From assembly GCF_003018255.1 (NCBI RefSeq), contig NZ_CP027440.1: a stretch of DNA of 64,000 nucleotides; one strand, 5' to 3'. Both the position numbers and the translations under genes were made by a program. Shown piece by piece: positions 1,343 to 54,290 of the stretch (positions are counted from its first letter, which is position 1; the number at the start of each line of letters is the position of its first letter). The DNA comes from Escherichia coli. Its GTDB lineage: Bacteria > Pseudomonadota > Gammaproteobacteria > Enterobacterales > Enterobacteriaceae. The notes below the pieces were generated by a model, which was given only the letters and a program-made list of their open reading frames with translations, was not told the DNA's origin and did not search any database.

Positions 1343-1353
1343 CGGAGGCTTTT

Positions 1354-3834: not shown

Positions 3835-3866
3835 AAATACTACCCTTAATTATTAAAGAGAAAAAA

Positions 3867-4601: not shown

Positions 4602-4980
4602 TTTCTTTTTTTGTTCAAATAGTTACTCCGAAGAAAAAATAGAGATAATAAACATTAATAAACCAATATATATAGGTACCAATCAATCAGATAAGGTGCT
4701 TATTACTGCGTGTAATCATTGGGTGCTTAATTCTAGAGATATTATAGACATATTCAATCTAAGTATAAAGCATGATGATTATGGCGAAATAAACAGAATG
4801 TATTATTGGTTACCTTGTGAAATTAGAGGGAGACTAATGTATGACGGAATAGAATGGAGTTTTGTTATCAATGCTGCTGCAACAGCAATGTGGATGAGCA
4901 ATGATAAAGAGATTTACTGGGGATGCAATAAAAAAGCATGCGATAATTTCTTTTTATTACCATATGATGGGATGAGGTAA
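4543..4980 (+). CDS. Putative secreted (periplasmic) immunity protein for the upstream amidase
   Basis: Start is ambiguous (ATG 4531/4543 or GTG 4570) and overlaps the effector 3' end. N-terminus MIKLVIKQKVKALISIVLINFFFCSNSYS has the form of a Sec signal peptide. Small Cys-rich AT-rich ORF. Confidence 0.45.
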   Translation: MIKLVIKQKVKALISIVLINFFFCSNSYSEEKIEIININKPIYIGTNQSDKVLITACNHWVLNSRDIIDIFNLSIKHDDYGEINRMYYWLPCEIRGRLMYDGIEWSFVINAAATAMWMSNDKEIYWGCNKKACDNFFLLPYDGMR

Positions 4981-5085
4981 ATCACAGTTAATAAAGCAAA
5001 AACATTATGGACAAGTGAATTAATCAGATAGTTCAAGCACCTTGAGATTCATTGTATTCATATTTCAGAATAACGGATTATTACA

Positions 5086-6300: not shown

Positions 6301-6356
6301 TGGTTCCGGGATTAAACCGTCTCCGGCCCCGTTCGGTTTCAGGGCCTGCCATCGTC

Positions 6357-9300: not shown

Positions 9301-9683
9301 TTGACGGGCAGGAGCTGGAATATTTCAACCAGAAGGAACGCTGGCAGCGTTTTAACTGGCCGGATGAACAGTGGCAACCCGGCGCATCGCTGAGCTGGAC
9401 CAGTACGCAGGCGATGGAACGCATACTGGCGGATTATCGGGGAAGCTGGAGCCTTATTCGCCTGCTGGAACAGGCGCAGGTGACACCGGTGGACAGCAGT
9501 ACCTTTAAAGTGGTGTGGAAAGCGCAGGACGGCCTGCCGCTGAATTACCTGCTGCGGGTTGAACAGGGTAAAGGGCCGCTGGCGCTGCTGGAACTGAAAA
9601 ACTTCCGCCTGCCGGGACAGGTGTTCCTGACCGGCAGGAGTATGAAGGATGCGGAAGAATACGGGGAAGACGCCGATGAGTGA
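6357..9683 (+). CDS. tssM: TssM (IcmF-family) T6SS membrane-complex protein
   Basis: ~1100 aa. Two TM segments at the N-terminus, a third around WLRITLMSAVCVLAIWGAGM, then a long C-terminal domain. Start is uncertain (GTG 6300 or ATG 6357; the track ORF begins at 6141). Stop overlaps the tssA start. Confidence 0.8.
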   Translation: MTVAVVVALCTFIHRKPALLGVEPGSSQQMYWMAGVIAAGVVFLIIMGVYHLLNRHAAVQSFELHRQLAAGDDYRAVTTKKADSRHPAMVELAAFLRDRYGPFWRRKIRLLLVTGEPEQAEAIAPGLTGQHWLEGDHTVLIYGGRPSTEPDVALLTALKKLRRSRPLDGIIWPLTEEQSRQTAQLDKGWRELINGGKRLGFQAPLYLWQVCDNGDYQTGRPLQSVGCLLSERCTPEQLAAMLEAQTLPLTEQGMSQLLTDNRHDFLLRLAHTLAERGIAHWQSILKPLLAGGAFSSLRLRGLMFSPPLTAVPEAAPHAWLPSPVWAGVTGDNARGRTVGFPWLRITLMSAVCVLAIWGAGMTTSFFANRALVQETSIQTARALDIRLPLSEQLVALHTLQGELERLQYRIREGAPWYQRFGLERNQQLLAAAFPGYAQAANRLVRDVAVDHLQQQLNAFVALPPNSPQRTATGEQRYKQLKALLMTSRPEKADAAFFSTTLMADDLRYAGVPEGVRQSVLPSLLTFWMANLPEHPQWKTSPPPELTGAVRKILLRQIGVRNAENTLYQNVLQQVSRNYADMTLADMTGDTLTESLFSTEQTVPGMFTRQAWEGQVREAIEQVVTARREEIDWVLSDRQQDTSADISPDMLRNRLTSRYFTDFAGSWLAFLNSIRWKKEDSLSGILDQLTLMADARQSPLIALTDTLAWQAAAGRENRGLSDSLAKSAQELFNGKEKTPQQSREGDVPVGPLDKTFAPLLRLLGDKAGGGDSQLSLQTYLTRVTRVRLKLQQVTNAPDPQEMTQQLAQTVLQGKTVDLTDTRDYGSLIAASLGEEWSGFGQALFVRPVEQSWRQVLTPAADSLNRQWQRAIVSHWDQDFAGRYPFKASQNDASLPLLAQYLRDDGRINQFIAANLSGVLKREGRYWVADAMNTQGLTVNPDFIRALNRLRDVADTAFASGDAGIHFELRAKPARDVMKTHLVIDGQELEYFNQKERWQRFNWPDEQWQPGASLSWTSTQAMERILADYRGSWSLIRLLEQAQVTPVDSSTFKVVWKAQDGLPLNYLLRVEQGKGPLALLELKNFRLPGQVFLTGRSMKDAEEYGEDADE

Positions 9684-11286
9684 ACTGTTGCAAAAGCTGA
9701 CCCGTAGCTGTTTTGCCGACCGGGACGCACTGGACTCGGCGCGAACACAGGCGGCGCTGTGGCAGACATGGCTGCTGCCGGTGACGGCAGATACGCCGGT
9801 CGGGGAAGACCCCGGCTACCACGACGATTTCCTGCGTATCCGCGACGAGATGAACAAACTTTCCGGCGCGGATACGGACCTTATCTGCCAGCTTGCCGAA
9901 TCCCTGCTGCTGACGCAGGCAAAAGACGTGCGCATCGCCACTTACTATATCTGGGCGCGACTGCACCGCGATGGCGAACGCGGACTGGCTGAGGGGCTGG
10001 CGCTGTTAGCCGGACTGGTGGAACGCTTCGGTGCGCAACTGCTGCCCTCGCGCCCGGCAAGCCGAAAAATGGCGCTGGAGTGGCTGGCAGGGGAAAAGAT
10101 GCTCGACAGCCTTGCCCGCTACCCGGAAGTGGCAAAAGAGGATTTTGCGAACATTGTTGCCGCTCTTAATCAACTGACGGTTTCCTTCACTGCATGGCCC
10201 GAAGACCAGCATTCCCCCTCCCTGATGCCGCTGATTAACGCGCTGGAATCACGTCTGGCGCAGTCGGGTGGGATGAACGCGGTGGTGCCGCAGAACAGCA
10301 GCGGCGTTCCGGCACCGTCTTCCCCGGTGGATGCGCCACAGGTACAGACCATCACTTCCGGGCGCGACCTGCTCGACCAGGCGAAAGTGCTGGCCCGTTA
10401 TCTGAACGAACAGCCGCAGGGCTGGCTTTCAGCACACCGGCTGATGAAAACCCTGCGCTGGGACACGGTGCATGAACTGCCGCCGGATGTGGACGGAAAA
10501 ACCCGGCTGGCCCCGCCGCGCACAGAATCACGCAACCAGCTTAAGCGGCTGTATGCTCAGCAGAACTGGACGGAACTGCTGGAGCAGGCCGACCTGATGT
10601 TCAGCACCGGCGTCAGCCATTTCTGGCTGGACATTCAGTGGTATCTGCATCAGGCGCTGACTAAGGCGGGCGCACCGTGGGACAGGTGGACAGCGGTTAT
10701 CCGTCAGGACCTGGCGTTACTACTGGAACGCCTGCCGGGGCTGGAAAATCTGGCATGGAACGACGGCACGCCGTTCGCCGATGAGTTGACGCGCAACTGG
10801 ATAGCGCAGCAGGTCATGATGCGGGAAGACGGCGCATGGCTTGCGGGGAAAGCCGCTGTACCGACAGACGACGCCACAAACGACGTACTGGCGCTGGAGC
10901 CGGAAGCGCTGGAGATGGCAGACAGTCAGGGCGTGGAAGCGGCGCTGGGCTGGATACAGACCCGTCCGGGCATCACCACGGCACGCCAGCGCCTGTTATT
11001 GCGACTGCTGATGGCGCGGGTGGCGGAACAGTACGGTAAAAACGAGATGGCGCTCCTGCTGCTGGAAGAACTGGATATCGCCGCACAGGGGCTGACGCTG
11101 ACGCAGTGGGAGCCGGACCTGCTGTTTGAGGTAAAAGCCCGACAGCTGAAACAGCTGCGCCTGCGGGCGCACCGCTATGCGGATAAAGCCCTGCTGAACC
11201 GAAAAATGGAAATCCTGCTGGGAACGCTGGTGACAATAGATCCGGTACGGGCAGCGGTATTGTGTGATACGCAACATAAGGACTGA
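9676..11286 (+). CDS. tssA: TssA (ImpA_N-domain) T6SS baseplate/cap protein
   Basis: N-terminal ImpA_N-like block (...LLPVTADTPVGEDPGYHDDFLRIRDEMNKL...). ATG at 9676 overlaps the tssM stop (ATGAGTGA); an alternative ATG lies at 9649. Confidence 0.8.
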   Translation: MSELLQKLTRSCFADRDALDSARTQAALWQTWLLPVTADTPVGEDPGYHDDFLRIRDEMNKLSGADTDLICQLAESLLLTQAKDVRIATYYIWARLHRDGERGLAEGLALLAGLVERFGAQLLPSRPASRKMALEWLAGEKMLDSLARYPEVAKEDFANIVAALNQLTVSFTAWPEDQHSPSLMPLINALESRLAQSGGMNAVVPQNSSGVPAPSSPVDAPQVQTITSGRDLLDQAKVLARYLNEQPQGWLSAHRLMKTLRWDTVHELPPDVDGKTRLAPPRTESRNQLKRLYAQQNWTELLEQADLMFSTGVSHFWLDIQWYLHQALTKAGAPWDRWTAVIRQDLALLLERLPGLENLAWNDGTPFADELTRNWIAQQVMMREDGAWLAGKAAVPTDDATNDVLALEPEALEMADSQGVEAALGWIQTRPGITTARQRLLLRLLMARVAEQYGKNEMALLLLEELDIAAQGLTLTQWEPDLLFEVKARQLKQLRLRAHRYADKALLNRKMEILLGTLVTIDPVRAAVLCDTQHKD

Positions 11287-12698
11287 TGGCAATGGGAACA
11301 GGCTACTTTCTGGTCAGGGGGGACAAAACCACCTGCGGCGGCAAAATTATTGAAGGCGCGGACGACCATACGATCATGGGTATCCCGCAGGCGCGGGATA
11401 TGGACCGGGTCACCTGCGGCAGATATCCGGGAATGTTTATTATTGTGGGCGGCGTTCCTGAAACAGATATTCACGGCAGGCTGATGGCGGGGACGCTGGA
11501 CAGTCAGAGCAGTTGCCCGTGTAAGGCACGGTTTATTGCGTCAATGATGGATGATACGTATGAGACGGATGACGGGGAAAGTGAAGCGGAACAACATGCG
11601 CAGTCGGCGAAAAAGGATCTGACTTCTGGTTCTGATTCATCCTCTGATGATGTAAAACTGGATTACAGAATTAAATTATCAGGTAATAAGATACTGACGC
11701 CACTGAATATACCTGATTATAAAGAAATGATTAGCGGTGGTAGTACGAAGAATACAGAAAAAATAGATTTTACCATCACAAATAAAGGCGATGAGGCTGA
11801 AGCGCTTTCTCTGGAAGTGCTTGATGGTAATGAAGTGATTTATAGTGAACGGCAGACCGGTAAATATTGTGATAAGGGAGAGCATGCCTGGCAATGGGAT
11901 GGCTACAGTAATCAAGGCATACTGGATACAACTAAGATAAAAAGCAAATCACTACTCGTAAGACTGATTGCTTTATGTGGTGATATGATGATAAAAGTTG
12001 ATTATCCATTGAAAAATGCTGCGAAAGAAGAAGAGTGGGTTGATGTAAAAGTTGACAGAAATAATAAAGTGGTCGATATAACATGGAGATTATCTGTTAA
12101 GGATAGCGGTACAAAAGGCAGTAACCCTGAGTTATCGCCAATACCTTATAGCGATTTAGTTAGTCTTACTAAAAATGGCGTGGAGTTTTACTGGTCACGA
12201 AATGGAAGTCGCGGCGGGGGAATTGGTGGTAATATCGTTACAGCGATTGGGGTTTTTAAAGTAAATGTAAAGGCTGAGATAAATATTACTCCATCTATGC
12301 GAACTTTTGATTTGATATCATCGTTAGATCCAGATATGCAGTCGTCGGTAAGTCTTTTGGGGTTTGAAAAAATATACCATAACTATGGTGGCTATTATAA
12401 TAACAGCAAGGATGAAATAAAGGCTCTTCTATATAGTAATGAAAGATATAAATGGGATAGTGCTCATGAGATGGGACATAAAGTTATGGATAAATATGGT
12501 TCTGAATCATGGACACATAAGGGGACATCCACGCGGGGTCAAAGTACCATCCCTAATACTCCAATGCCATCTTCAGGAGAGATTGATATAATGAAATATG
12601 CAGATAGCTATGCACCTGATAGATATAAGAGATTGGTCGCGGCAGATGAAGATGTTCAGGCATTGATCTGGTTGAGCAGGGTGAGTTTTAATGATTAG
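11286..12698 (+). CDS. PAAR-like domain protein with C-terminal HExxH (zincin-like) putative toxin domain
   Basis: N-terminus (GDKTTCGGKIIEGADDHTIMGIPQARDMDRVTCG...) resembles PAAR/DUF4150 spike-tip domains. C-terminal region is AT-rich and contains HEMGH. ATG overlaps the tssA stop (TGATG). Confidence 0.6.
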   Translation: MAMGTGYFLVRGDKTTCGGKIIEGADDHTIMGIPQARDMDRVTCGRYPGMFIIVGGVPETDIHGRLMAGTLDSQSSCPCKARFIASMMDDTYETDDGESEAEQHAQSAKKDLTSGSDSSSDDVKLDYRIKLSGNKILTPLNIPDYKEMISGGSTKNTEKIDFTITNKGDEAEALSLEVLDGNEVIYSERQTGKYCDKGEHAWQWDGYSNQGILDTTKIKSKSLLVRLIALCGDMMIKVDYPLKNAAKEEEWVDVKVDRNNKVVDITWRLSVKDSGTKGSNPELSPIPYSDLVSLTKNGVEFYWSRNGSRGGGIGGNIVTAIGVFKVNVKAEINITPSMRTFDLISSLDPDMQSSVSLLGFEKIYHNYGGYYNNSKDEIKALLYSNERYKWDSAHEMGHKVMDKYGSESWTHKGTSTRGQSTIPNTPMPSSGEIDIMKYADSYAPDRYKRLVAADEDVQALIWLSRVSFND

Positions 12699-12713
12699 AA
12701 TAATTGTTTTTTA

Positions 12714-13115
12714 TTGTTTTTTTTGAGTGGGTGTACTTCACAAAAAGAGTATTCCAATATAGTCAGGATTGAGAATAGATGCTCCTCAGATATCGATGTC
12801 TTTATTCAGGGATATGTTTCCGGTTCTACGCTGATTTATCAGCATAATATACACTTGCCAGTTGGTGATAGTGATGTATTAGTATATTTTTCCACGGCAG
12901 ATATTGATGATGGTTTTAAATATGAGGGGGCATTCATGATATATAAAGATAGCCGCGGTGAATTGGATTATCCATTCACCATTTCATTGTCAGGGCGCGA
13001 AAAAAAATTTGGGAAGAATGACTTAATTAGATTATCACGAGATATTTCAACAAAAGACGACAGAAAATACGGAGTTATAAGATATATAATCGACAGTCAG
13101 GAAATTTGCCCGTGA
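12714..13115 (+). CDS. Small AT-rich ORF, candidate immunity protein; 5' end probably disrupted by a homopolymer frameshift
   Basis: The track ORF starts at a TTG. An upstream ATG at 12691 (overlapping the PAAR stop) encodes MIRIIVFYCFF and then hits a stop after a T8 tract. One extra T would give MIRIIVFYCFFLSGC..., a lipoprotein signal with lipobox. Confidence 0.4.
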   Translation: MFFLSGCTSQKEYSNIVRIENRCSSDIDVFIQGYVSGSTLIYQHNIHLPVGDSDVLVYFSTADIDDGFKYEGAFMIYKDSRGELDYPFTISLSGREKKFGKNDLIRLSRDISTKDDRKYGVIRYIIDSQEICP

Positions 13116-13324
13116 TGTTTTAAGTTATTCGTTCACAATTATTAATTATTGCCTATTATGTAAGGTAAATTTAATTTGGTTCAGAAAAGACAAGAATACA
13201 TCATTATTAAAATCAATAAGTCAGCAACTATCCATAATATATTCACATAGAATAAATTTAACTATGATGTTACTTCTACACCTGCATGATATTCACTTTC
13301 AATGAAAGGAAGATAATCCCTCCG

Positions 13325-15085
13325 ATGGACGATCTAACCCAACGCTACTACGAAGCCGAAATGCGCTACCTGCGTGAAGCGGGGAAAGAATTTGCGCAGG
13401 CTTACCCCGACCGCGCCGCGATGCTCAATCTTGATAAACCCGGCGCACGCGATCCCTATGTGGAGCGCCTGTTCGAAGGCTTCGCTTTTTTAATGGGTCG
13501 CCTGCGTGAAAAGCTGGATGACGACCTGCCCGAACTGACCGAGGGGCTGGTCAGCCTGCTGTGGCCTCACTACCTGCGAACCATCCCGTCACTTTCCGTG
13601 GTTGAACTGTCGACAGATCACCGGCAGATGAAGCAGAGCGAAACACTGAGTAATTTTCAGGTATTGTCGCGTCCTGTTGGCGAGCGCAGAACCCGCTGTG
13701 TCTACAGTGCTACGCGGGATATCACGCTGCATCCGCTGGCGCTGCCGGACGTGTCATTGCAATATGAACCGGACGGGCGCTCGGTTATCCGTCTGCGCTT
13801 TGAATGCGGCCCGCTGGTTGGTGACTGGTCACAGATCGATCTATCCCGTTTGCCGCTCTATCTCAATGCCGACAGCCCGGTGGCCTGTGCGCTGCACCGG
13901 GCTTTAACGCTTGGCACCCAGCAGTTCTGGCTGCGTCTGCCGGGGCAGGAACGCCGTGTGCTGGACGCGCACTTTTCCCCGATGGGTTTTGATGACAATG
14001 ACCGACTGTGGCCAAAAGGCGAGTCGGCGTTCAGCGGCTACCAGTTGCTGCTGGAGTATTTCACCTTCCGCGAAAAGTTTATGTTTGTGGCGCTGAACGG
14101 GCTGGAGAACGTCATCTGGCCGGAAGGGATGAGCGGCTTTGAGATTGACGTGGTGCTGAGCGAGAACTGGCCTCACGACCTGCCGTTTGACAGCGATAAT
14201 ATCCGTCTGCACTGCGTGCCGGTCATCAACCTGTTCCCGCTGGAAGCCGATCCGTTACACCTTTCGCCACTGGAAAACGAATTTCTGCTGCGCCCGATGC
14301 GTATTCAGGACGGGCATACCGAGATTTATTCCGTCGACAACATTATTTCTTCGCGCCATACCGGCAGTCAGGCGTATGTCCCGTTTTCCAGCTTTCGTCA
14401 CCGGGGCGGGATGCTGCGCCACGATGCACCGGAACGCTATTACCATACGCGGGTTAAGCGCGGCCCTTCCGGCCTGCATGATACCTGGCTGATTCTGGGC
14501 GGCGATGCGTTTGATTCCGACCGGATGCTGGAGGATGAAACGCTCTCTTTAAGCCTGACCGGCACTAACGGACAGCTTCCCCGTAAGGCTTTACAGAGCA
14601 CGCTGCTTGATACGCCAGTTCATGCCTCACAGAACGTCCTGCGGGTGCGCAACCTGTGCGCCCCGACGCAGCCCTGTTATCCCCCGGCGCGTGACCGCTT
14701 CCACTGGCGGGTGCTCAGCCACCTCGGTTCTAACTTTCTTTCAATGATGGATAACGCCGAAATTCTGCGCGGCACGCTGGCGCTGTACGACTGGACCGAA
14801 AGCGAGATGAACCGCCGCCGTCTGTCGGCGATTGTCGACGTTCAGCACAGCCTGATACAGCGTTTTGAAAGAGGCTTTCTGCTGCGTGGCGTGGATATTC
14901 AGGTGACGCTGGACAGCACCGGCTTTGCCGGAGAGGGTGATATCACGCTGTTTGGCGAACTGCTGCACCGCTTCTTTGCACTGTATGCCGATATCCACTT
15001 ATTCACTCAACTGACCTTAATTCTGCAACCCACAGGAAAGTGCCTGCAATGGACAGAGCATCACAGCCAGCGCGTACCGGGCTGA
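13325..15085 (+). CDS. tssF: TssF (ImpG/VasA family) baseplate protein
   Basis: N-terminus MDDLTQRYYEAEMRYLREAGKEFAQAYPDRAAMLNL matches the conserved TssF N-terminal pattern. The track ORF begins 13 codons upstream at 13286. Confidence 0.8.
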   Translation: MDDLTQRYYEAEMRYLREAGKEFAQAYPDRAAMLNLDKPGARDPYVERLFEGFAFLMGRLREKLDDDLPELTEGLVSLLWPHYLRTIPSLSVVELSTDHRQMKQSETLSNFQVLSRPVGERRTRCVYSATRDITLHPLALPDVSLQYEPDGRSVIRLRFECGPLVGDWSQIDLSRLPLYLNADSPVACALHRALTLGTQQFWLRLPGQERRVLDAHFSPMGFDDNDRLWPKGESAFSGYQLLLEYFTFREKFMFVALNGLENVIWPEGMSGFEIDVVLSENWPHDLPFDSDNIRLHCVPVINLFPLEADPLHLSPLENEFLLRPMRIQDGHTEIYSVDNIISSRHTGSQAYVPFSSFRHRGGMLRHDAPERYYHTRVKRGPSGLHDTWLILGGDAFDSDRMLEDETLSLSLTGTNGQLPRKALQSTLLDTPVHASQNVLRVRNLCAPTQPCYPPARDRFHWRVLSHLGSNFLSMMDNAEILRGTLALYDWTESEMNRRRLSAIVDVQHSLIQRFERGFLLRGVDIQVTLDSTGFAGEGDITLFGELLHRFFALYADIHLFTQLTLILQPTGKCLQWTEHHSQRVPG

Positions 15086-16128
15086 CCGACCGGCTGGCCC
15101 CGGATATTGCGCGGATCAATTTTTACCGTTTTTGCCAGTTGCTGGAACAGAGCCCGCAGAACGCGCCGCTGGGCAGTACCGACAGCCCCGCCACCGATGC
15201 GGTGCGCTTTCGTCCTCATCCAGGTATGGGCTTTCCGGTCAGCGAGTTAAAAAACGTTGAACGTGACGTGGGCAATCCCGACGCGCCCCCCACGGTGCGC
15301 ACCACTTTTCTCGGCCTGTACGGCGTGGATTCGCCGCTGCCAACCGCCTATCTGGACTACATTACCCAGCGTCATGACGGACATGACGCAGTGATGGCGT
15401 TTCTCGATATTTTTAACCATCGCTTTATTACTCAGTACTACCGCATCTGGCGCAAATATAACTACCCGGCGTCGTTTGAAGCAGGTGCCGTGGATGACAT
15501 TTCCCGTTGTCTGCTGGGACTCATCGGGCTGGGTATTCCCGGCAGCGAGAACCATATCGCCACGCCGGTATCCCGTTTTCTGGCCCTGCTCAGCGTGATG
15601 CGCCTGCCGACGCGCACGGCGGAAGGCGTTACGGCACTGGTGGGACTGCTTGCCCCGCTGACGAAAGCGACGGTGGTGCCTCATGATCCGCAGCCTGTAA
15701 TTCTCCCGGCCCCTGCGGGTCTGTCAAAAAATTCACGCATCAGCCTGAAAACGCGAACGCTGCTGGGGCGTACCGGTACCGACGTCAACAGCCAGTTGCT
15801 GCTGAAACTGTATACCGAAGATGCCGCAGAAGCGCGTGGCTGGCTGCCCGGCGGGCAACTGCACAGCGATTTGCTGGTGCTGCTGCGCGTTTATCTGGGC
15901 TGGCGCTGTCAGGCCCGTCTGCAACTGACGCTGCCCGTCAGCCTGTTGCCTGCTGCCCGGCTGGGAAAACAGCGTGTACAGATTAGCCGTACCGGCATCC
16001 TTCGCGCCTCCTTTGCCGCGCCCGCGACCGGAACAGTGACGGTCAGTCTGGGGCGTTATCAGGGATTAATACCCGCTTTTTCCATTCGTAACAGGGAGAG
16101 TATGACTCATGTTTCCTATTCGTTTTAA
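15049..16128 (+). CDS. tssG: TssG baseplate protein
   Basis: N-terminal ...INFYRFCQLLEQ... is typical of TssG. ATG at 15049 follows SD AGGAAAG and overlaps the tssF 3' end. Confidence 0.8.
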   Translation: MDRASQPARTGLTDRLAPDIARINFYRFCQLLEQSPQNAPLGSTDSPATDAVRFRPHPGMGFPVSELKNVERDVGNPDAPPTVRTTFLGLYGVDSPLPTAYLDYITQRHDGHDAVMAFLDIFNHRFITQYYRIWRKYNYPASFEAGAVDDISRCLLGLIGLGIPGSENHIATPVSRFLALLSVMRLPTRTAEGVTALVGLLAPLTKATVVPHDPQPVILPAPAGLSKNSRISLKTRTLLGRTGTDVNSQLLLKLYTEDAAEARGWLPGGQLHSDLLVLLRVYLGWRCQARLQLTLPVSLLPAARLGKQRVQISRTGILRASFAAPATGTVTVSLGRYQGLIPAFSIRNRESMTHVSYSF

Positions 16129-16645
16129 ACGTCCGGCGTTGCTCTGTATGGCGATGCTGACGGTTGTTCTGAGTGGCTGCGGGCTGATTCAGAAAGTGGT
16201 GGATGAATCGAAAAGCGTGGCCTCAGCCGTTTTCTACAAACAAATCAAAATACTGCATCTCGATTTCTTCTCCCGCAGCGCCCTGAATACGGATGCGGAA
16301 GATACGCCGCTTTCCACGATGGTGCATGTCTGGCAACTGAAAACCCGCGAAGATTTTGATAAGGCGGATTATGACACCCTGTTTATGCAGGAAGAGAAGA
16401 CGCTGGAGAAGGACGTACTGGCAAAACACACCGTCTGGGTAAAACCTGAAGGCACGGCATCCCTGAATGTGCCGCTGGATAAAGAGACGCAGTTTGTCGC
16501 CATTATTGGGCAGTTTTATCACCCGGATGAAAAAAGCGACAGCTGGCGTCTGGTGATCAAAAGGGACGAACTGGAGGCCGACAAGCCGCGCTCGATTGAA
16601 CTGATGAGAAGCGACCTGCGACTGCTGCCTCTCAAGGATAAATAA
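16109..16645 (+). CDS. tssJ: TssJ outer-membrane lipoprotein
   Basis: 178 aa. Signal peptide with lipobox (MLTVVLSGCGL). Size and position between tssG and tssE. Confidence 0.8.
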   Translation: MFPIRFKRPALLCMAMLTVVLSGCGLIQKVVDESKSVASAVFYKQIKILHLDFFSRSALNTDAEDTPLSTMVHVWQLKTREDFDKADYDTLFMQEEKTLEKDVLAKHTVWVKPEGTASLNVPLDKETQFVAIIGQFYHPDEKSDSWRLVIKRDELEADKPRSIELMRSDLRLLPLKDK

Positions 16646-16648
16646 CCG

Positions 16649-17077
16649 ATGGCGACACCTTCCTTATATGAAATGCTGACGTTCAGTTTCAGCGGCGAGT
16701 TACCGCTGGAACAGGTCAGTGAGCGGGATCAGCTTATCCTTTCCGTGATGGACAATATGCAACGCATTATCAACTGTCGGGCAGGCACACTGGCGCATTT
16801 GCCGGATTACGGTCTGCCGGATCTCAGCCTGATCCATCAGGGGATGGCTGCGGGTATTCATAGCCTGATGCGCCAGATTGAAGAAACGCTGCTGCGTTAT
16901 GAACCACGCCTGAATCAGATACAGGTGGAGTTACTGCCCCAGCCCGGTCCGGGGCATCTTAATTACCTGATCCACGCGCAGCTTCCCGATACCGGCTGGA
17001 TACGCTTTGATGGCGTATTTTCTCCGGAAGGACGAATTGTTCTGCGTCATCTCAAACAACAGGAGCGGGCGTACTGA
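16649..17077 (+). CDS. tssE: TssE (gp25-like) baseplate protein
   Basis: 142-aa protein of gp25/GPW25 size class. Stop overlaps the next gene start (TGATG). Confidence 0.75.
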   Translation: MATPSLYEMLTFSFSGELPLEQVSERDQLILSVMDNMQRIINCRAGTLAHLPDYGLPDLSLIHQGMAAGIHSLMRQIEETLLRYEPRLNQIQVELLPQPGPGHLNYLIHAQLPDTGWIRFDGVFSPEGRIVLRHLKQQERAY

Positions 17078-18453
17078 TGGCAAGTAACGCGAATTTTATC
17101 AGCCAGTTCGTCATGGGCGGCGATCCCTGTACTTATAAGGAATCCGGTGAACTGCAGGCTGAAATGAGTAAACTGACTCACCCGGCCCGACCGGATGTGG
17201 ACTGGCGTCAGGTGGAAAAACTCTGCCTCGCGCTGTTCCGGCAAAATGGCGTGGAACTACAGACGCTGGTCTGTTACGTGCTGGCAATAACCAGACGGCA
17301 GGGGCTGGCAGGGATGGCAGACGGACTCGGTTCACTGGATATACTGCTCCAGCGCTGGGCTGACTTCTGGCCGGTACAGGTACATTCCAGAATATCACTG
17401 CTCAGCTGGGTCACAGAAAAAATGCAGCAGGCACTGAGAACGCTGGATATTCAGTATCAGGATCTGCCGCAGATCTACCGTTGTGTACAGCATCTTTCCG
17501 CCATCGAAACCACGCTGCAACAGTGTGAACTGTGGCATATGACGAAGCTGGACGTATTGTCCGGGCAGTTTCGCAATGCGGCTCTGCGTCTGGAACGGCT
17601 GGCGCCTCAGGGAGCGGAAACCATTATCACTCCCCCTGAATTACCCCGCCGGGAAATGAATCAACCGAAAAAGTCAGAGGAAAGTCCACAGCCGGTTTTT
17701 GCAACCAGATCCGTTCAGCAAAACGATAAGGATGCCAGTCCACCCGTGCCATCCCCTGAAATCTCCCGGCAGCGGACATGGCCGATATTTATGGCCGGAA
17801 TGGTTGTGATGGCCGGTCTCGGCGGAACAGGATTATGGGGCTGGTCGCAGCTTAATCAGCCGGACGCGCTAATCCAGCGAATACAACTGTCTGTCATGCC
17901 GTTGCCGCAGTCGCTGGAGAGCGGCGAACTGGCAAAGCTGGATGTAAAGGATAAGGCGCTGCTGGCTCAGGACAGAACAATTGCGGCAAGTCAGATGCAA
18001 CTGGAGCAGTTAAACAAATTGCCTGCCCGCTGGCCACTGGAGCAGGGATATCGCCAGCTACGCCAGCTTGATGCCCTGTGGCCGGATAATCCTCAGGTCA
18101 GGGCGCTGAACGCGCAGTGGCGCAAACAGCGGGAGCTGAGCGCCCTGTCTGCTGAGGCACTGAATGGCTATGCTCAGGCGCAGAGCCAGCTACAGCGCCT
18201 GTCGGCGCAGCTGGATGCACTGGATGAACGTAAGGGGAGATATCTGACCGGTTCGGAACTAAAAACGGCGGTGTACGGCATCCGGCAGTCGTTAAAGGAG
18301 CCGCCGCTGGAAGAACTGCTTCGGCAACTGGAAGAGCAAAAACAGACCGGAGAGGTTTCGCCAACGCTGTTGACGCAAATTGATACCCGGTTAAATCAGT
18401 TGTTGAATCGCTATGTCATTTTACTGGATACGAAGGTGGAACAAAGTCAGTAA
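17077..18453 (+). CDS. ImpA_N-domain, membrane-anchored T6SS accessory protein (TagA/VasL-like)
   Basis: N-terminal ImpA_N-like region, one hydrophobic helix (WPIFMAGMVVMAGLGGTGLWGW), and a C-terminal Q/L/E/R-rich region with heptad-like character. Last gene of the + strand cluster. Confidence 0.6.
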   Translation: MASNANFISQFVMGGDPCTYKESGELQAEMSKLTHPARPDVDWRQVEKLCLALFRQNGVELQTLVCYVLAITRRQGLAGMADGLGSLDILLQRWADFWPVQVHSRISLLSWVTEKMQQALRTLDIQYQDLPQIYRCVQHLSAIETTLQQCELWHMTKLDVLSGQFRNAALRLERLAPQGAETIITPPELPRREMNQPKKSEESPQPVFATRSVQQNDKDASPPVPSPEISRQRTWPIFMAGMVVMAGLGGTGLWGWSQLNQPDALIQRIQLSVMPLPQSLESGELAKLDVKDKALLAQDRTIAASQMQLEQLNKLPARWPLEQGYRQLRQLDALWPDNPQVRALNAQWRKQRELSALSAEALNGYAQAQSQLQRLSAQLDALDERKGRYLTGSELKTAVYGIRQSLKEPPLEELLRQLEEQKQTGEVSPTLLTQIDTRLNQLLNRYVILLDTKVEQSQ

Positions 18454-18660
18454 ACATCGGGGGATTTATGTACCAATAAGGGATATGTGACCTTGCCATT
18501 TTTTAAAATGGAGTCTCTGTGTACAAAAAAGAGAGGAACAGGCCATTCGATCTACTCGTTGATTCACATCAGATAATGAGTGTATATTTCGGTAGATAGC
18601 TTGGGTTCGGGAACAGTGAATACCTTAAGTTTCAAAAGATTGGATTAACCTCTTGACTGT

Positions 18661-18753: not shown

Positions 18754-19710
18754 TCACAACACGTTTTTTATCTCCCTTCCTGCGAAGTAATCAATTATCG
18801 ACTGGGCAACGTGTATCCCGGTTTGCTGGTATGACTCAACGGTGGCGGCCGCGATATGCGGCGTTGTAATGATATTTTTGGCATGTAGCAGTGGGCTAAA
18901 TTGCGCCAACGGTTCAGAGCTAAACACATCCAGCGCCGCAAACACATTTCGTTCTTCAATCACCTGAAGTAAAGCGCCCTCATCCAGCAACTTTCCCCTT
19001 GCGGCATTGATGATCAGAGCACCATTGCGCATCATCGACAAATATTTATGACTAATGAAGTTCTCCAGCTCAGAAGAAAAAGGCAAAAGAACAATGATGA
19101 CATGCGACTGCATAAAGATATCTTCAATTGATACAAACTGAACTCCAGCTTTGTCAGCAACCTGATAGTCGGGTTGTTTGTCAAAAGCTAAAAGCTCAAC
19201 ATCAAAACCAGATAACCTTTTCGCCAGTGTTTTGCCAATATTGCCGTAGCCAAGCAGGCCAATACGTTTACCTTGTAACTCGCAGCCATGCGACTCACCC
19301 CAATAACCATTTTGCATTGCATGATAGCTACCGGGGATATTTCTCATGCTCGCAAAAATAAGACCGATGATAAATTCCGCGACTGCGTTTGAATTAATCC
19401 CAACAGCATTATTGACCACAATACCTGATTGTCGAGCCGTATGAAGATCAATATTATCAATCCCTGTCCCGAATCTCGATATTATTTTCACTCCTGGTAG
19501 TCGCGATAACGTATCCGCTTGATAACAATCTTTTCCGGCAATGACTGCGCAAATAGATTCTCGTAATACTGTGGATTCTGATTTAACCAGATGCTCCACA
19601 TTATTCTTGATAATAAGGTTAAAATGATTTTCTCTTAGCAGCTTGCTGGCAGAAACACAACGCGCTGAAAAGCTGGGAACGGTGACCAGAACGTTTTTCA
19701 TAGCTGACAC
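18754..19710 (-). CDS. D-isomer-specific 2-hydroxyacid dehydrogenase family protein
   Basis: 318 aa. NAD-binding motif GLLGYGNIGKTLAKRL. Low-GC gene. Confidence 0.7.
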   Translation of the reverse strand: MSAMKNVLVTVPSFSARCVSASKLLRENHFNLIIKNNVEHLVKSESTVLRESICAVIAGKDCYQADTLSRLPGVKIISRFGTGIDNIDLHTARQSGIVVNNAVGINSNAVAEFIIGLIFASMRNIPGSYHAMQNGYWGESHGCELQGKRIGLLGYGNIGKTLAKRLSGFDVELLAFDKQPDYQVADKAGVQFVSIEDIFMQSHVIIVLLPFSSELENFISHKYLSMMRNGALIINAARGKLLDEGALLQVIEERNVFAALDVFSSEPLAQFSPLLHAKNIITTPHIAAATVESYQQTGIHVAQSIIDYFAGREIKNVL

Positions 19711-19771
19711 TCACATCAATGAACGCCACCCCAAAAGATGGCGTGACCGGTTACTGTTTTATATTCTAAAA

Positions 19772-20368
19772 TTATGAGTTTGCTTTAATACCGAGCGCAC
19801 CTCCTGGATGATATAAGCCGAAATCAGCACGAGTAAACTTTTTCAATTCGGAGAGCGCAAGCGCCACCGCATCACCAACAACCAGAACGACTGTTGATGA
19901 GCATGACGGCGCTAAACCTAAATTATCCGCCTCACTTTTTACGGGAATTTCAACGGATAAATCACAACTTATCGCAAGCGATGAGCGATGACTGCGGGTA
20001 AAGGAGATCAAATAATTACCCATTTTTTTCAGACTAGGTAGTGTTGCCAGGATTTCTGTCGTCTCACCACTGTTTGAAATAAGAATAACAACATCATCTT
20101 TCGCCACCATCCCAAGATCGCCGTGTACGGCTTCAGTACCGTGAACAAAAAACGAGGGAGTTCCAGTGCTGGCAAATGTTGCGGCGAGTTTTCGGGCAAT
20201 AATACCGGACTTACCGACACCAATAAAAACAACTTTCCCCTGACAAGACTGTAATACTTTAATTAAATTTGCGACCTCCGAAAGGGGGGAATCAATAACT
20301 TCTTCAACTGCTTTATGTTCGTTACGCATAAAATGTTTAATGAGATGGATAAGATCCGTACTGTTCAT
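19772..20368 (-). CDS. SIS-domain sugar-phosphate isomerase (KpsF/GutQ-like, no CBS domains)
   Basis: 198 aa. SIS-like block VVFIGVGKSGIIARKLAATFASTGTPSFFVH...ILISNSGETTEIL. Confidence 0.65.
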   Translation of the reverse strand: MNSTDLIHLIKHFMRNEHKAVEEVIDSPLSEVANLIKVLQSCQGKVVFIGVGKSGIIARKLAATFASTGTPSFFVHGTEAVHGDLGMVAKDDVVILISNSGETTEILATLPSLKKMGNYLISFTRSHRSSLAISCDLSVEIPVKSEADNLGLAPSCSSTVVLVVGDAVALALSELKKFTRADFGLYHPGGALGIKANS

Positions 20369-20370
20369 TT

Positions 20371-21546
20371 TTATTTTCCTTGATTAATATTTTTAATTAC
20401 ACTCGCAAGACGCGTAAGCCCCATATATAATTTTTCTCGACCGCAGGCCAGGTTCAGACGAAGGTAGCCCTCCCCCTCCGTTCCATAGACATTCCCCGCC
20501 ATAATGCCCACTTTGCCTTCATGAATTAATCGACTGTAGAATTCATCAAAGGAATAACCAATAGCAGAGCAATCTATCCACGAAAAATAGCAACCATCAG
20601 CTGGCCTTACGATCAATTCTGGAGTATTTTCGTTCAGATACTGCTGGGTGAATTGAATGTTAGAGGCGATATGTGCCTTTAATGACTTTAACCATCCCTC
20701 ACATTCATTATAGGCAACAATGGTTGCAATTATATTCAGTACTGATGGGGAGTTTACGAAATCGCGATACCTCGATATCGTTCTGAACTTATGATTATAA
20801 TCCTCGTCAGTTGAAATCAGATACGATCCTGTTAGCGCAGGAACATTAAATGTTTTCGATATCGAGTTAAATACCACTACTTTTTCTTTTTTTATTTTAA
20901 GCGCGGATGTAAAGCTACGATTAAAAACAAAATCACTATGAATTTCATCTGAACATAACCAGACATTATGCCTTGTACAGCTTGTAGCGATTTTAAGCAG
21001 TTCTTCTTCCGACCAGACTGTTCCTGTCGGATTATGAGGATTACATAATAACACCATCTTTGCGCTTTTAATCTTAAGATCAAAATCTTGCCAGTTGATA
21101 GCGTAGCCCCCCTCATTTTTTATAATCAAAGAGGCTGTCAGAATATTTCGCTCGCTATGTTTAATTACATCAAAAAATGCATTATAGACAGGTGTAAAAA
21201 CGAGAATATTATCACCATGCGATGTCAATAACTCTATTGCCTTTGCAATAGAGTACATCACACTGGGGCTATAGGTTATCCATTCAGGTTTAATGTCTGT
21301 TTGATATTGTTGATGATACCAGTTTACTATCGCATTCAGATATTCACCATGTTGCCAACGACTGTACCCTAAAATCGGGTGTTCCAGGCGTTTTTTTAAT
21401 GCTCTGGTGATAGCGTCTGGTATCGGAAGATCCATATCTGAAATAGAGAAGGGTAATACATCTTTTACACCAAATCTGTCCTCGCAAAAGTCCCATTGGG
21501 TGCAATATGTTCCTTTACGGGAAATAGGAGTATTAAAAATATCCAT
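20371..21546 (-). CDS. PLP-dependent aminotransferase class I/II, MalY/PatB-like C-S lyase
   Basis: 391 aa. Motif CNPHNPTG and a lysine-containing SISKTFN block typical of this family. Confidence 0.7.
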   Translation of the reverse strand: MDIFNTPISRKGTYCTQWDFCEDRFGVKDVLPFSISDMDLPIPDAITRALKKRLEHPILGYSRWQHGEYLNAIVNWYHQQYQTDIKPEWITYSPSVMYSIAKAIELLTSHGDNILVFTPVYNAFFDVIKHSERNILTASLIIKNEGGYAINWQDFDLKIKSAKMVLLCNPHNPTGTVWSEEELLKIATSCTRHNVWLCSDEIHSDFVFNRSFTSALKIKKEKVVVFNSISKTFNVPALTGSYLISTDEDYNHKFRTISRYRDFVNSPSVLNIIATIVAYNECEGWLKSLKAHIASNIQFTQQYLNENTPELIVRPADGCYFSWIDCSAIGYSFDEFYSRLIHEGKVGIMAGNVYGTEGEGYLRLNLACGREKLYMGLTRLASVIKNINQGK

Positions 21547-23126
21547 CAGCGCATCCCCATGTAGTTATCCATATCCCTACGCAGGGCGATGACTTTAGTG
21601 CCGATAATGACTTGTAGGGTATTTTGATCAAGTTTAACAACCGCAATCCCGCCAGCTCTTTTTATTGCAACTTCATCAATCAATCCCATATCTGCGATTG
21701 TTAAACGTAAACGAGTTACGCAATTATCCAGTGACTTAATATTCTCTTTACCACCAAGTGCCTTAACCATCTGCTCCGCTGCTTGCAACTCTGATTTATC
21801 AAGAGTTGGGGTATCCGCTATAGCCGTATCTTCGTGAGCGTTCAGCGTGACAGGACTGGACTCTTCACGTCCTACGGTCATCAGGTTAAATTTGAGAATG
21901 GTCCAACGGAACACAAAGTAATAAATGAAGAAATAGGCCACTTCAACACACACCGCGATCGGCCAACCTGTTCTTGTGCCACGCAATACGCCAAAGCTAA
22001 TAAATTGAATCAGATCGCCAGTAAATCCCATCTTCACGCCCATATATGGCAAGACCATGTTGGCGAATCCATTCATAAAGGCATGGAAGACAAACAGCAG
22101 CGGACTGACAAATAAGAACAGAAATTCAATCGGTTCGCTGACGCCACCAATAATAACCGTAAGCACACCGGAAATAAGCAATGCTTTGATAGCCTTTCTG
22201 TTTTGAGCATGAGCAGTGCGATACATGGCCAGTGCAGCACCAGCCAGACCGTACTGAATCATCAGTTTGCCCTGCTCCATTTTCCCCGCCAAATCCAGCG
22301 GAATGACCGCATTCTCTTTGACGTACGCCATAAACATGTTCAGGGTGCCGTAATACTCTTCGCCGCCAATCACAGCCGAACCGCCGATTGGCGTAAAGCG
22401 GAACACTGACGTCACCAGATGGTTTAAGCCAAAAGGAATCGTCACACGTTCGGCAACTGCATAGAAGAAATAACCAACAGGACCGGAAGTTGATATCCAG
22501 TGGCCAATGAGCATGAAGAGATTGAAAAATGGCGGCCAGATAAAAGGAATGATCAGACCAAATCCACTCATCACAATCAGTGTAATGATAGGCACCAGAC
22601 GTGGGCCGCTATAAAAACCTAATGATTCTGGAATGCGTAAATTAACGATCTTTTTATACATGCTGGCGACTAATAACCCAGCAACAATTCCCCCTAACAC
22701 GCTGGTATTGTAGGACTGGATCCCCAGAATGATGTTTTGCCCATGTGTCGACATTTGGTCAGCAACGACCAATAAGTCGTGCTGTTTAAGATAAAAGTTC
22801 GTTCCCAGATGCATCGCCATAAAACCAATTAAGCCAGAAAAAGCACCATAGGCTTTATCCTCTTTATCTTTTAATAATCCTAAGGGAATCGCTATCGCAA
22901 ACAATACAGGTAAATTAACAAAGGCAAACAAACCAAGACTAACAATGAAATCAAGTATGGTTTTAATTATTGGAATAGCCAGAAATGGAATTAACTTTGC
23001 CATATCATCACTGGCTAAACCACTTCCCAGCCCTAGCATCATGCCACATACACTTAGCAGAGCAATGGGATACATAAATGCCTTCCCCAGGCTCTGAAAA
23101 AAACTCCAGGCTTTCTTTTGTTTCAT
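21546..23126 (-). CDS. PTS glucose-family EIICB component
   Basis: 526 aa. Polytopic membrane domain plus C-terminal EIIB with NCVTRLRL phosphorylation-site motif. Confidence 0.8.
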   Translation of the reverse strand: MKQKKAWSFFQSLGKAFMYPIALLSVCGMMLGLGSGLASDDMAKLIPFLAIPIIKTILDFIVSLGLFAFVNLPVLFAIAIPLGLLKDKEDKAYGAFSGLIGFMAMHLGTNFYLKQHDLLVVADQMSTHGQNIILGIQSYNTSVLGGIVAGLLVASMYKKIVNLRIPESLGFYSGPRLVPIITLIVMSGFGLIIPFIWPPFFNLFMLIGHWISTSGPVGYFFYAVAERVTIPFGLNHLVTSVFRFTPIGGSAVIGGEEYYGTLNMFMAYVKENAVIPLDLAGKMEQGKLMIQYGLAGAALAMYRTAHAQNRKAIKALLISGVLTVIIGGVSEPIEFLFLFVSPLLFVFHAFMNGFANMVLPYMGVKMGFTGDLIQFISFGVLRGTRTGWPIAVCVEVAYFFIYYFVFRWTILKFNLMTVGREESSPVTLNAHEDTAIADTPTLDKSELQAAEQMVKALGGKENIKSLDNCVTRLRLTIADMGLIDEVAIKRAGGIAVVKLDQNTLQVIIGTKVIALRRDMDNYMGMR

Positions 23127-23157
23127 GTGGGTTATCTCATATAAATGTTATATATAA

Positions 23158-23982
23158 TTAGTCCATTAATACTTTGGTACGAATAGAGAGATATAGTTTT
23201 TCTTCTAAAATTAATTCATATTTAAAAGTGGCATACAGATACCGTTCAATTTCATGAATTGCGCGCTGTAACAGGATGTCCTTTTCAAGAAACTGTTCAT
23301 AGATATCACCAATATCTTTCTGTTTTATTTTTTCATTGCATAACACGCGACTTGAAAAATATTTAAGGTGCATCATAAATCTGGAATAGTTAAATGAACT
23401 TCTGTCCACCTTTCTGTTATAAACAACTTCAATAAGCTCCGTGATTATTTGCGACAACTCAATAATCCGTACTGATTCATAATCAACTGAATTTTCATAA
23501 TTATTTAAAATATGCAATGCTATAAAACCAATCTCATCATCAGGAAGTTGAACGCTGAATTGCTCATTAATGATAGTTAATGCATCGCGACTTATCGCAT
23601 ACTCTGCTTTGTACAACGCTTTGATTTCATCAAGGAAAACATTATTAATTTGTATACCTGAAACTACTCGGGATATTGCATTCGAAATGTGATCCGCAAG
23701 AATCAATAGTAGCGATGGATTGAGATTTTTTTCGAGATTTTTCTCCGCATATTGCACTATTTTTTCGGCAACAAAAATATACTCAATATCCACATGTTCA
23801 ATCAATTTGTAGAGTTTATTTTTTTGTTCGTTTCTGACATAAAAAATCCGGTTAGCCGGATGTTCAGGGACCGACATTCCATATTTTTTGTTATAACCGA
23901 CGCCAGGTCCAGAAATGATAACCTCCTGTCCATTCATCGATGCCTGTACACAATTATTGTTCATGACTTTTTCGATGATCAT
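23158..23982 (-). CDS. BglG/LicT-family transcription antiterminator (CAT RNA-binding domain plus PRD domains)
   Basis: Start taken at MIIEKVMNNNCVQASMNGQEVIISGPGVGYNKK (CAT domain signature) with SD GGAG 7 nt upstream. The track ORF extends 19 codons further upstream, into the leader hairpin. Confidence 0.75.
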   Translation of the reverse strand: MIIEKVMNNNCVQASMNGQEVIISGPGVGYNKKYGMSVPEHPANRIFYVRNEQKNKLYKLIEHVDIEYIFVAEKIVQYAEKNLEKNLNPSLLLILADHISNAISRVVSGIQINNVFLDEIKALYKAEYAISRDALTIINEQFSVQLPDDEIGFIALHILNNYENSVDYESVRIIELSQIITELIEVVYNRKVDRSSFNYSRFMMHLKYFSSRVLCNEKIKQKDIGDIYEQFLEKDILLQRAIHEIERYLYATFKYELILEEKLYLSIRTKVLMD

Positions 23983-23993
23983 TCCATGACTCC

Positions 23994-24075
23994 AAAAAAA
24001 AAGGCAAGGCACGTCAGAAGTAATAATTACTTCAAACATTGCCTTGCCTGATTTAACAGTTACAAGATGATTAAC
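23994..24075 (-). promoter_or_regulatory. Leader intrinsic terminator with overlapping RAT-like element upstream of the antiterminator gene
   Basis: On the minus strand: AGGCAAGGCA, a loop containing the palindrome GAAGTAATAATTACTTC, TGCCTTGCCT, then T9, directly abutting the SD. Upstream TTGTAACTGTTAAATCAGGCAAGGCA resembles the RAT consensus. Confidence 0.5.
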
Positions 24076-49328: not shown

Positions 49329-52695
<3,367 letters not shown>

Positions 52696-52761
52696 TCAGT
52701 AAAAGCGAATGGAGGGAGATTACACGAGATAAAGAACGCGAGCGACAGTAAATTAGGTGCG

Positions 52762-52849
52762 AAAAAAAACCTGCGCATCCGCGCAGGTTGGTGCAAGAGA
52801 CAGGGTACGAAGAGCGTACCGAATAATCTCACCAATCAATACCTCTGGG
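52762..52849 (-). ncRNA. omrA: Small regulatory RNA OmrA
   Basis: Minus-strand unit beginning CCCAGAGGTATTGATTGGTGAG and ending in the terminator hairpin CCTGCGCGGATGCGCAGG plus T-run. In the aas-galR intergenic region, as in K-12. Confidence 0.8.
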
Positions 52850-52963
52850 ATCTTGATTGTGGTCTGCACGACGACTCTTCGCCAGTGAGAAAACGCAAAG
52901 GAATGAAGGGAAATGCAACGAGGTGTGTAAATTGTCGGTTACTGTTACAGATTGATGACCGGC

Positions 52964-53045
52964 AAAAAAAACCTGCGCATCTGCGCAGGCTGGTGTAATT
53001 CATGTGCTCAACCCGAAGTTGACTTCACCTATCAATACCTCTGGG
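52964..53045 (-). ncRNA. omrB: Small regulatory RNA OmrB
   Basis: Paralogous unit: CCCAGAGGTATTGATAGGTGAAGTCAAC..., terminator CCTGCGCAGATGCGCAGG plus T-run. Confidence 0.8.
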
Positions 53046-53258
53046 ATCACCACTTTAGCAACCTGAAGCCAAACGCCACCAGCGGTCAATCGCAACAGCG
53101 TTTCGCAAAGTGTAACCAAAGGTTTGCAATCTCTTTTTTTGTCTTACTTATTTGCGTTTGGCTCACATTCCCACAATGAAAACACGCCGCCCCTTGAACC
53201 AACGGGCGTTTTCCGTAACACTGAAAGAATGTAAGCGTTTACCCACTAAGGTATTTTC

Positions 53259-54290
53259 ATGGCGACCATAAAGGATGTAGCCCGACTGGCAGGCGTTTCA
53301 GTCGCCACCGTTTCCCGCGTCATTAATAATTCACCCAAAGCCAGCGAAGCTTCCCGGCTTGCTGTGCATAGTGCAATGGAGTCTCTTAGCTATCACCCGA
53401 ACGCCAACGCCCGTGCGCTGGCGCAGCAGACCACTGAAACGGTCGGTCTGGTCGTTGGTGATGTTTCCGATCCGTTTTTCGGTGCAATGGTGAAAGCGGT
53501 CGAACAGGTGGCTTATCACACTGGTAATTTTTTATTGATTGGCAACGGTTACCACAACGAACAAAAAGAGCGTCAGGCCATTGAGCAACTGATCCGCCAT
53601 CGCTGTGCTGCGTTGGTCGTCCATGCCAAAATGATCCCGGATGCCGATTTAGCCTCATTAATGAAACAAATGCCCGGTATGGTGCTGATCAACCGTATCC
53701 TGCCTGGCTTTGAAAACCGTTGTATTGCTCTGGACGATCGTTACGGTGCCTGGCTGGCTACGCGTCATTTAATTCAGCAAGGTCATACCCGCATTGGTTA
53801 TCTGTGCTCTAACCACTCTATTTCTGACGCCGAAGATCGTCTGCAAGGGTATTACGATGCCCTTGCTGAAAGTGGTATTCCGGCCAATGACCGGCTGGTG
53901 ACATTTGGCGAACCAGACGAAAGCGGCGGCGAACAGGCAATGACCGAGCTTTTGGGACGAGGCAGAAATTTCACTGCGGTAGCCTGTTATAACGATTCAA
54001 TGGCGGCGGGCGCGATGGGCGTGCTCAATGATAATGGTATTGATGTACCGGGTGAGATTTCGTTAATTGGCTTTGATGATGTGCTGGTGTCACGCTATGT
54101 GCGCCCGCGTCTGACCACCGTGCGTTACCCAATCGTGACGATGGCGACCCAGGCTGCCGAACTGGCTTTGGCGCTGGCGGATAATCGCCCTCTCCCGGAA
54201 ATCACTAATGTCTTTAGTCCGACGCTGGTACGTCGCCATTCAGTGTCAACTCCGTCGCTGGAGGCAAGTCATCATGCAACCAGCGACTAA
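53259..54290 (+). CDS. galR: Galactose operon repressor (LacI family)
   Basis: 343 aa. N-terminal HTH MATIKDVARLAGVSVATVSRVIN. Confidence 0.92.
   Translation: MATIKDVARLAGVSVATVSRVINNSPKASEASRLAVHSAMESLSYHPNANARALAQQTTETVGLVVGDVSDPFFGAMVKAVEQVAYHTGNFLLIGNGYHNEQKERQAIEQLIRHRCAALVVHAKMIPDADLASLMKQMPGMVLINRILPGFENRCIALDDRYGAWLATRHLIQQGHTRIGYLCSNHSISDAEDRLQGYYDALAESGIPANDRLVTFGEPDESGGEQAMTELLGRGRNFTAVACYNDSMAAGAMGVLNDNGIDVPGEISLIGFDDVLVSRYVRPRLTTVRYPIVTMATQAAELALALADNRPLPEITNVFSPTLVRRHSVSTPSLEASHHATSD

Follow-up and report, generated by a model that had tools for sequence, protein, structure and literature searches.

The 64,000-nt stretch of Escherichia coli DNA that was analysed (hereafter the window) carries, at positions 52762-53045, two independently transcribed paralogous small RNA genes of the Hfq-binding class, OmrA and OmrB, and we hold this reading to be about 97% probable. 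When the whole 64-kb window was scanned with Rfam release 15 at gathering thresholds, exactly two matches were obtained, both to the OmrA-B family (RF00079, gathering score of 40 bits) and both covering the model in full (1-87 of 87). The match at 52762-52849 scored 96.6 bits (E = 6e-18) and that at 52964-53045 scored 86.1 bits (E = 2e-15). As a reference, we used the curated genes of K-12 MG1655 (NC_000913.3). The aas-proximal unit was found to be identical to K-12 omrA (b4444) over 88 of 88 nt and the galR-proximal unit to K-12 omrB (b4445) over 82 of 82 nt.

52762..52849, minus strand: omrA gene, 88 nt, start at 52849 and 3' end at 52762 (RF00079 match, identity to K-12 b4444)
52964..53045, minus strand: omrB gene, 82 nt, start at 53045 and 3' end at 52964 (RF00079 match, identity to K-12 b4445)

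A first-pass annotation of this DNA had described an OmrA/OmrB pair made of two paralogous minus-strand units of about 85 nt, and had proposed a covariance-model scan for OmrA-B as the check. That scan returned the two full-length matches given above and, together with the 100% identity to K-12, bears out the pair, with units of 88 and 82 nt. The interval proposed there runs exactly from the OmrA 3' end to the OmrB 5' end. The units had been left unassigned; by identity with the K-12 genes, 52762-52849 is OmrA and 52964-53045 is OmrB. When aligned with each other, the two units are identical in 64 of 90 columns, with both ends alike and a divergent centre. Likewise, a direct-repeat search detected repeats of 24 nt at the 5' end (96%) and of 35 nt at the 3' end (91%), 196-202 nt apart. 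For this strain, we computed the identity and boundaries of the units, their structure, synteny and conservation, the hexamers of their promoters and their in silico pairing, while the dependence on OmpR, sigma-S and Hfq and the repression of targets are taken from the literature on the identical K-12 sequences. Since the RNAs are identical to those of K-12, experiments performed in K-12 would carry over directly, and we infer that omrA and omrB are probably expressed and active in this strain as they are in K-12.

The location between aas and galR, also part of the first-pass annotation, is supported by NCBIfam equivalogs for both neighbours, which score well over their cut-offs, and by synteny with K-12.

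50515..52674, minus strand: aas, downstream neighbour (NF005959 equivalog, 1530 bits)
53259..54290, plus strand: galR, divergent neighbour (NF008002 equivalog, 735 bits)

The aas start codon lies 87 nt beyond the OmrA 3' end on the same strand, 213 nt separate the transcription start of omrB from the galR start codon, and lplT and lysA are found beyond aas and galR, as in K-12. In MG1655, omrA adjoins aas and omrB adjoins galR, both on the aas strand. Compared with K-12 OmrA (RygA) and OmrB (RygB), the RNA sequences, strand, order, spacing and flanks all match; the terminators, both -10 hexamers and the upstream blocks conserved in the promoters are the same too. Between tas and ygeA, a span of 8.5 kb, the window shows 145 differences from K-12 (~1.7%), and the host strain is, as judged from its sequence, an E. 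coli other than K-12.

Of 5,426 complete E. coli genomes, 5,423 carry the aas-galR intergenic region, at least 80% of which is retained in 5,405. In all, 5,427 matching places were obtained: one was on a plasmid-labelled record, and a few genomes had two, among them strain 300709 (NZ_CP025903.1). A mislabelled replicon or a duplication could possibly account for the plasmid-labelled or double matches. In CFT073 (NC_004431.1, 3283336-3284631), the region is split by the insertion of an IS200C transposase and is found as two pieces over 1,296 nt.

Beyond E. coli, a scan of one genome per species with the 15-mer common to the two 5' ends recovered many Enterobacterales loci, and Rfam was then run on 20 of these. 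Full-length OmrA-B matches were obtained in 19 of the 20 loci; in the twentieth (L021), the 15-mer is at the very end of the stretch. Tandem pairs were found in Escherichia albertii, Citrobacter, Enterobacter, Kosakonia, Pluralibacter, Serratia grimesii and Edwardsiella. One copy was found in the stretch analysed for Dickeya, Erwinia, Lelliottia, Shimwellia, Siccibacter, Superficieibacter and one Pantoea. In Pantoea stewartii (L030), the copies lie at 2747-2822 and 4789-4879, about 2 kb apart. Other Pantoea loci (L059, L076/L077) also hold two OmrA-B genes, at a distance of about 2 kb or more, and not as a tandem of about 200 nt; one Pantoea copy is unusually short (75-76 nt), with a central hairpin that is almost absent. 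The window thus holds a tandem pair, about 200 nt from start to start, of the kind typical of Escherichia, Citrobacter and Enterobacter, whereas other Enterobacterales have single-copy or dispersed loci, which share with it the same invariant 5' end, the terminator and the match to the family model. Single-copy OmrA-B loci were reported to retain the omrB-type promoter (PMC13425233). The 15-mer also gave many single matches in unrelated phyla, and these were taken to be chance, because by our own estimate about 500 are expected in 298 Gb on both strands.

The OmrA-B sequences of these loci were aligned, giving 29 sequences that include Escherichia, Citrobacter, Enterobacter, Kosakonia, Pluralibacter, Serratia, Edwardsiella, Pantoea, Erwinia and Dickeya. 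Column identity averages 97% in the 21 columns of the 5' end and 94% at the 3' end, and falls to 58% in the centre, where there are many indels. This pattern bears on the reading of the region as coding for small proteins, such as the 55-aa ATG ORF at 52836-53003 on the minus strand or ORFs of 78, 75 and 43 aa. ORFs overlapping the units are indeed present in a mechanical ORF list. However, the 55-aa ORF starts in OmrB and reaches OmrA only by crossing the terminator of the former and the promoter of the latter, so that it is spanned by no single predicted transcript. In addition, invariant ends, an indel-rich centre without a kept frame and compensatory changes in the stem form the pattern of an RNA, and we give the coding of small proteins hardly any credence compared with two sRNA genes.

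On the minus strand, both units start with CCCAGAGGTATTGAT. This common 5' sequence, which had been noticed in the first-pass annotation, is exact in both units and found nowhere else in the window: when searched on both strands of the 64 kb with up to two mismatches, it gave two matches only, at the two 5' ends, where 0.07 were expected, and 1 of 100 shuffles reached two matches. The 5' end that defines the family, CCCAGAGGUAUUGAU... at the transcription start, is also exact in both units and invariant in 29 of the 29 aligned members. Within nt 1-21, OmrA and OmrB differ solely at nt 16, and nt 1-15 and 17-20 are invariant in the 29 sequences, other genera included. As the loci were recruited with this exact 15-mer, the constancy of nt 1-15 follows in part from the search itself; nt 17-20 and the 3' end are free of this effect.

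52829..52849, minus strand: OmrA 5' target-pairing (seed) region, nt 1-21 (identity with OmrB, conservation, predicted duplexes, PMC2588501)
53025..53045, minus strand: OmrB 5' target-pairing (seed) region, nt 1-21 (same types of evidence as for OmrA)

Duplexes were computed between nt 1-21 of the window RNAs and the -60 to +30 regions of K-12 targets, the strain's own target genes being outside the window, with mononucleotide-shuffled seeds as a control.

ompT: nt 1-9 with +12 to +20, nine consecutive pairs; dG of -19.3 kcal/mol for OmrA and -17.8 kcal/mol for OmrB; z of -3.7 and -3.2
ompR: 5' end over the Shine-Dalgarno region; dG of -16.9 kcal/mol for OmrA and -19.0 kcal/mol for OmrB; z of -2.8 and -3.8
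cirA: published location recovered; dG of -13.6 kcal/mol for both OmrA and OmrB; z of -0.9 for both

For ompT and ompR, the seed is complementary to the translation-initiation region at the published sites, and better than the shuffled seeds. The energy of the cirA duplex was indistinguishable from that of shuffled seeds (z of -0.9), although the duplex lies at the published site, and therefore the cirA interaction rests on published genetics. In K-12, nt 1-9/2-10 of OmrA/B were described to pair with +12 to +20 of ompT and with the cirA leader, compensatory-mutation experiments back the pairing with ompT, and compensatory mutations restore the regulation of ompR (PMC2588501).

At the 3' end, each unit carries an intrinsic terminator.

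52762..52789, minus strand: OmrA intrinsic terminator, hairpin at 52768-52789 and U8 tail (terminator scan, MFE fold, covariation)
52964..52991, minus strand: OmrB intrinsic terminator, hairpin at 52970-52991 and U8 tail (terminator scan, MFE fold, covariation)

The terminator scan placed in each a hairpin of 9 pairs (6 of them GC) with a 4-nt loop, followed by the T-run, and the MFE folds put the same hairpins, with z of -2.7 and -2.9 compared to shuffles. The common terminator hairpin of the first-pass annotation is therefore found by both approaches in both units, and it has the form seen in the OmrA-B family, CCUGCGC-loop-GCGCAGG followed by a U-run. Across the 29 sequences, from at least 14 genera, the terminator helix is 100% paired and shows three compensatory pairs (U-A to C-G, G-C to A-U and C-G to U-A). 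Its covariation score was reached by 0 of 500 column shuffles, and the signal was lost when the partner was slid by 1-3 columns. The GGUG/CACC helix is invariant across the alignment, and covariation is neutral on it.

A hairpin followed by a T-run could also be the ordinary terminator, attenuator or intergenic repeat of a neighbouring protein gene. The OmrA terminator precedes aas by 87 nt, both being on the minus strand, which makes effects of read-through or attenuation conceivable, and matches to Leu_leader lie over both units (27.8 and 23.2 bits). Nevertheless, these scores are far under the gathering threshold of 50 and the leader peptide context is absent, and there is no upstream minus-strand gene to terminate, since galR is divergent. 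Nor would attenuation account for a 20-nt 5' segment that is invariant across more than 14 genera and sits exactly at a mapped transcription start. Finally, the curated annotation and experiments in K-12 define discrete RNAs of 88 and 82 nt with mapped ends. We consider a mere terminator or attenuator origin close to negligible, and the hairpins are best read as the 3' ends of OmrA and OmrB. The permissive Rfam scan of the intergenic region for further RNAs gave sub-threshold matches only. Along with Leu_leader, SgrS (15.2 vs 37 bits) and TeloSII_ncR49 (24.5 vs 55 bits) overlap or adjoin the sRNAs, and they were rejected as noise driven by the terminators.

To describe the promoters, positions were counted back from the 5' ends annotated in K-12, and the 120 nt upstream of each gene were aligned across ten genera.

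52850..52963, minus strand: omrA promoter region, -1 to -114 (computed positions, cross-genus conservation, literature)
52856-52861, minus strand: omrA -10 hexamer CACAAT (-12 to -7), with C at both -12 and -13
52890-52899, minus strand: PomrA conserved block TTTGCGTTTT, at about -45 (ten-genus alignment)
52911-52919, minus strand: PomrA conserved block GTTGCATTT, at about -70 (ten-genus alignment)
52942-52949, minus strand: PomrA conserved block TGTAACAG, at about -100 (ten-genus alignment)
53046..53159, minus strand: omrB promoter region, -1 to -114 (computed positions, cross-genus conservation, literature)
53052-53057, minus strand: omrB -10 hexamer TAAAGT (-12 to -7), with T at -12 (counted back from the 5' end)
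53059-53060, minus strand: omrB TG at -15/-14, as TG-n-TAAAGT (counted back from the 5' end)
53087-53097, minus strand: PomrB conserved block TGTTGCGATTG, at about -47 (ten-genus alignment)
about 53104-53115, minus strand: PomrB conserved block TTACACTTTGCG, at about -70 (ten-genus alignment)

Both promoters have poor -35 hexamers. The CACAAT and TAAAGT -10 hexamers are kept in Enterobacteriaceae, and the upstream blocks differ between PomrA and PomrB. At the sequence level, each gene thus has a promoter of its own, with -12C for omrA and -12T for omrB. According to a review, -12C renders omrA almost wholly dependent on sigma-S, while omrB, with -12T, is sigma-S independent (PMC12692685). The pattern of blocks in the window agrees with the four conserved regions described in PomrA and the two in PomrB, whose motifs differ between the promoters (PMC13425233). 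In K-12, OmpR-P was shown to directly activate either promoter in vitro on templates from -114 to +50, and it does so in vivo too, while an omrA template cut at -60 was unresponsive (PMC5175337). Since the -114 templates respond and the -60 omrA template does not, it can reasonably be supposed that the OmpR sites are among the blocks conserved from -60 to -114. A scan for the sigma-70 consensus over 52600-53300 gave zero sites, as expected because the promoters are weak and activator-dependent with a poor -35; this negative scan was counted neither for nor against the promoters, whose hexamers were read at a fixed distance from known starts.

The 584-nt intergenic region (52675-53258) differs from that of K-12 by three substitutions, all outside the transcribed RNAs. 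Two of them, at 53175 and 53189, precede the galR start codon by 70-84 nt and fall at -130 and -144 of omrB, whose promoter (-1 to -114) is identical to that of K-12. The third, at 52886, falls at -37 of omrA, where the window has A on the minus strand and K-12 has G. It could then be asked whether the units are non-functional relics, conserved in this strain but silent through a change such as the one at -37. The three substitutions are what this idea can call upon. However, no change touches the transcribed regions, the -10 hexamers or any of the promoter blocks conserved across genera, the omrB promoter is unaltered, and the A allele is common in E. coli, other genomes of the species having a 100% identical omrA promoter. 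The -37 column of PomrA is also variable between genera, with A in Citrobacter as well. We therefore regard silent relics as very improbable, and functional omrA and omrB as the reading to be kept. There is a slim chance that the A/G polymorphism, which adjoins the conserved CTGG block of the -35 region, alters the expression of omrA, be it basal or dependent on OmpR/sigma-S, from one lineage to another; neutrality is favoured because the column varies between genera. If true, such an effect would amount to a lineage-specific tuning of the OmrA/OmrB balance.

Other Hfq-dependent envelope sRNAs with a conserved 5' seed, such as RybB and MicA, are not known to be related to OmrA and OmrB in sequence or to occur as tandem duplicates, and they are under the control of sigma-E instead of OmpR. 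What they have in common with OmrA and OmrB is the single-stranded 5' seed, the U-tail of the intrinsic terminator for Hfq, and the repression of multiple outer-membrane protein mRNAs (PMC2588501). In the proposed mechanism, transcription of omrA and omrB would be activated by OmpR-P, as shown for the K-12 promoters, from which those of the window differ solely at omrA -37. In the mature RNAs, the single-stranded common 5' end (about nt 1-21) would form imperfect duplexes with many mRNAs at their translation-initiation regions, with ompT, cirA, fecA, fepA, ompR-envZ, csgD, flhDC, dgcM, btuB and others as the expected targets. Pairing would block ribosome binding and promote RNase E-dependent decay; in K-12, the regulation of ompT and cirA by OmrA/B requires Hfq and RNase E (PMC2588501). 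The 3' hairpin and U-tail would serve as both terminator and Hfq anchor. Hfq binding and dependence, shown for the identical K-12 RNAs (PMC2588501), would be expected of the window copies, which have the terminator with its U8 tail. With ompR as a target, OmrA and OmrB would exert a negative feedback on their own activator OmpR, and in K-12 the action of OmrA/B on ompR was reported to close such a loop (PMC2588501).

The pair had been put down as a known feature, and rightly, as OmrA and OmrB are already well studied in E. coli; there is nothing unusual about the feature in the window. They have been studied since 2001-2006 and the topic is still active, with a review in 2025; papers of 2026 reportedly describe an RstA-specific activation of omrB and new metabolic targets of OmrA/OmrB. 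The first-pass annotation had recorded the pair as absent from the ORF track, which is reasonable, as PGAP records list no feature there either. In the PGAP-annotated RefSeq E. coli genomes (L002, for example), every row listed reads 'none' over omrA and omrB, and among the records compared the two genes are annotated only in the curated K-12 record. Flagging them thus fills a real gap, both being left unlabelled by PGAP in thousands of E. coli RefSeq genomes. The value as a discovery is very small, and the pair is a clean positive control for reading coordinates, strand, motif and identity from raw sequence.

Elsewhere in the window, positions 1-18500 carry a type VI secretion gene cluster, which we take to be absent from K-12 at the corresponding position.

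14-1342: C-terminal part of ClpV
1354-3834: VgrG
3867-4601: Amidase_2 protein
5086-6300: 404-aa ORF without Pfam match
6141-9683: TssM/IcmF
9649-11286: TssA/VasJ
11286-12698: PAAR protein
13286-15085: TssF
15040-16128: TssG
17077-18453: VasL

No tRNA genes were found in the window, and Rfam at gathering thresholds gave no GcvB match. The K-12 layout would presumably predict a tRNA and GcvB upstream; their absence is put down to a loss of collinearity between the window and K-12 upstream of amiC, which the secretion cluster would explain, and not to a fault of the scan. Adjoining amiC, a cluster of five genes resembling those for sugar utilisation was observed at 18754-24039 on the minus strand.

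18754-19710, minus strand: D-2-hydroxyacid dehydrogenase
19772-20368, minus strand: SIS-domain protein
20371-21546, minus strand: class I/II aminotransferase
21546-23126, minus strand: PTS EIICB
23158-24039, minus strand: BglG-type antiterminator (PRD and CAT_RBD)

With a BglG-type antiterminator in the cluster, an RNA antiterminator target and a terminator are predicted upstream of the PTS gene.
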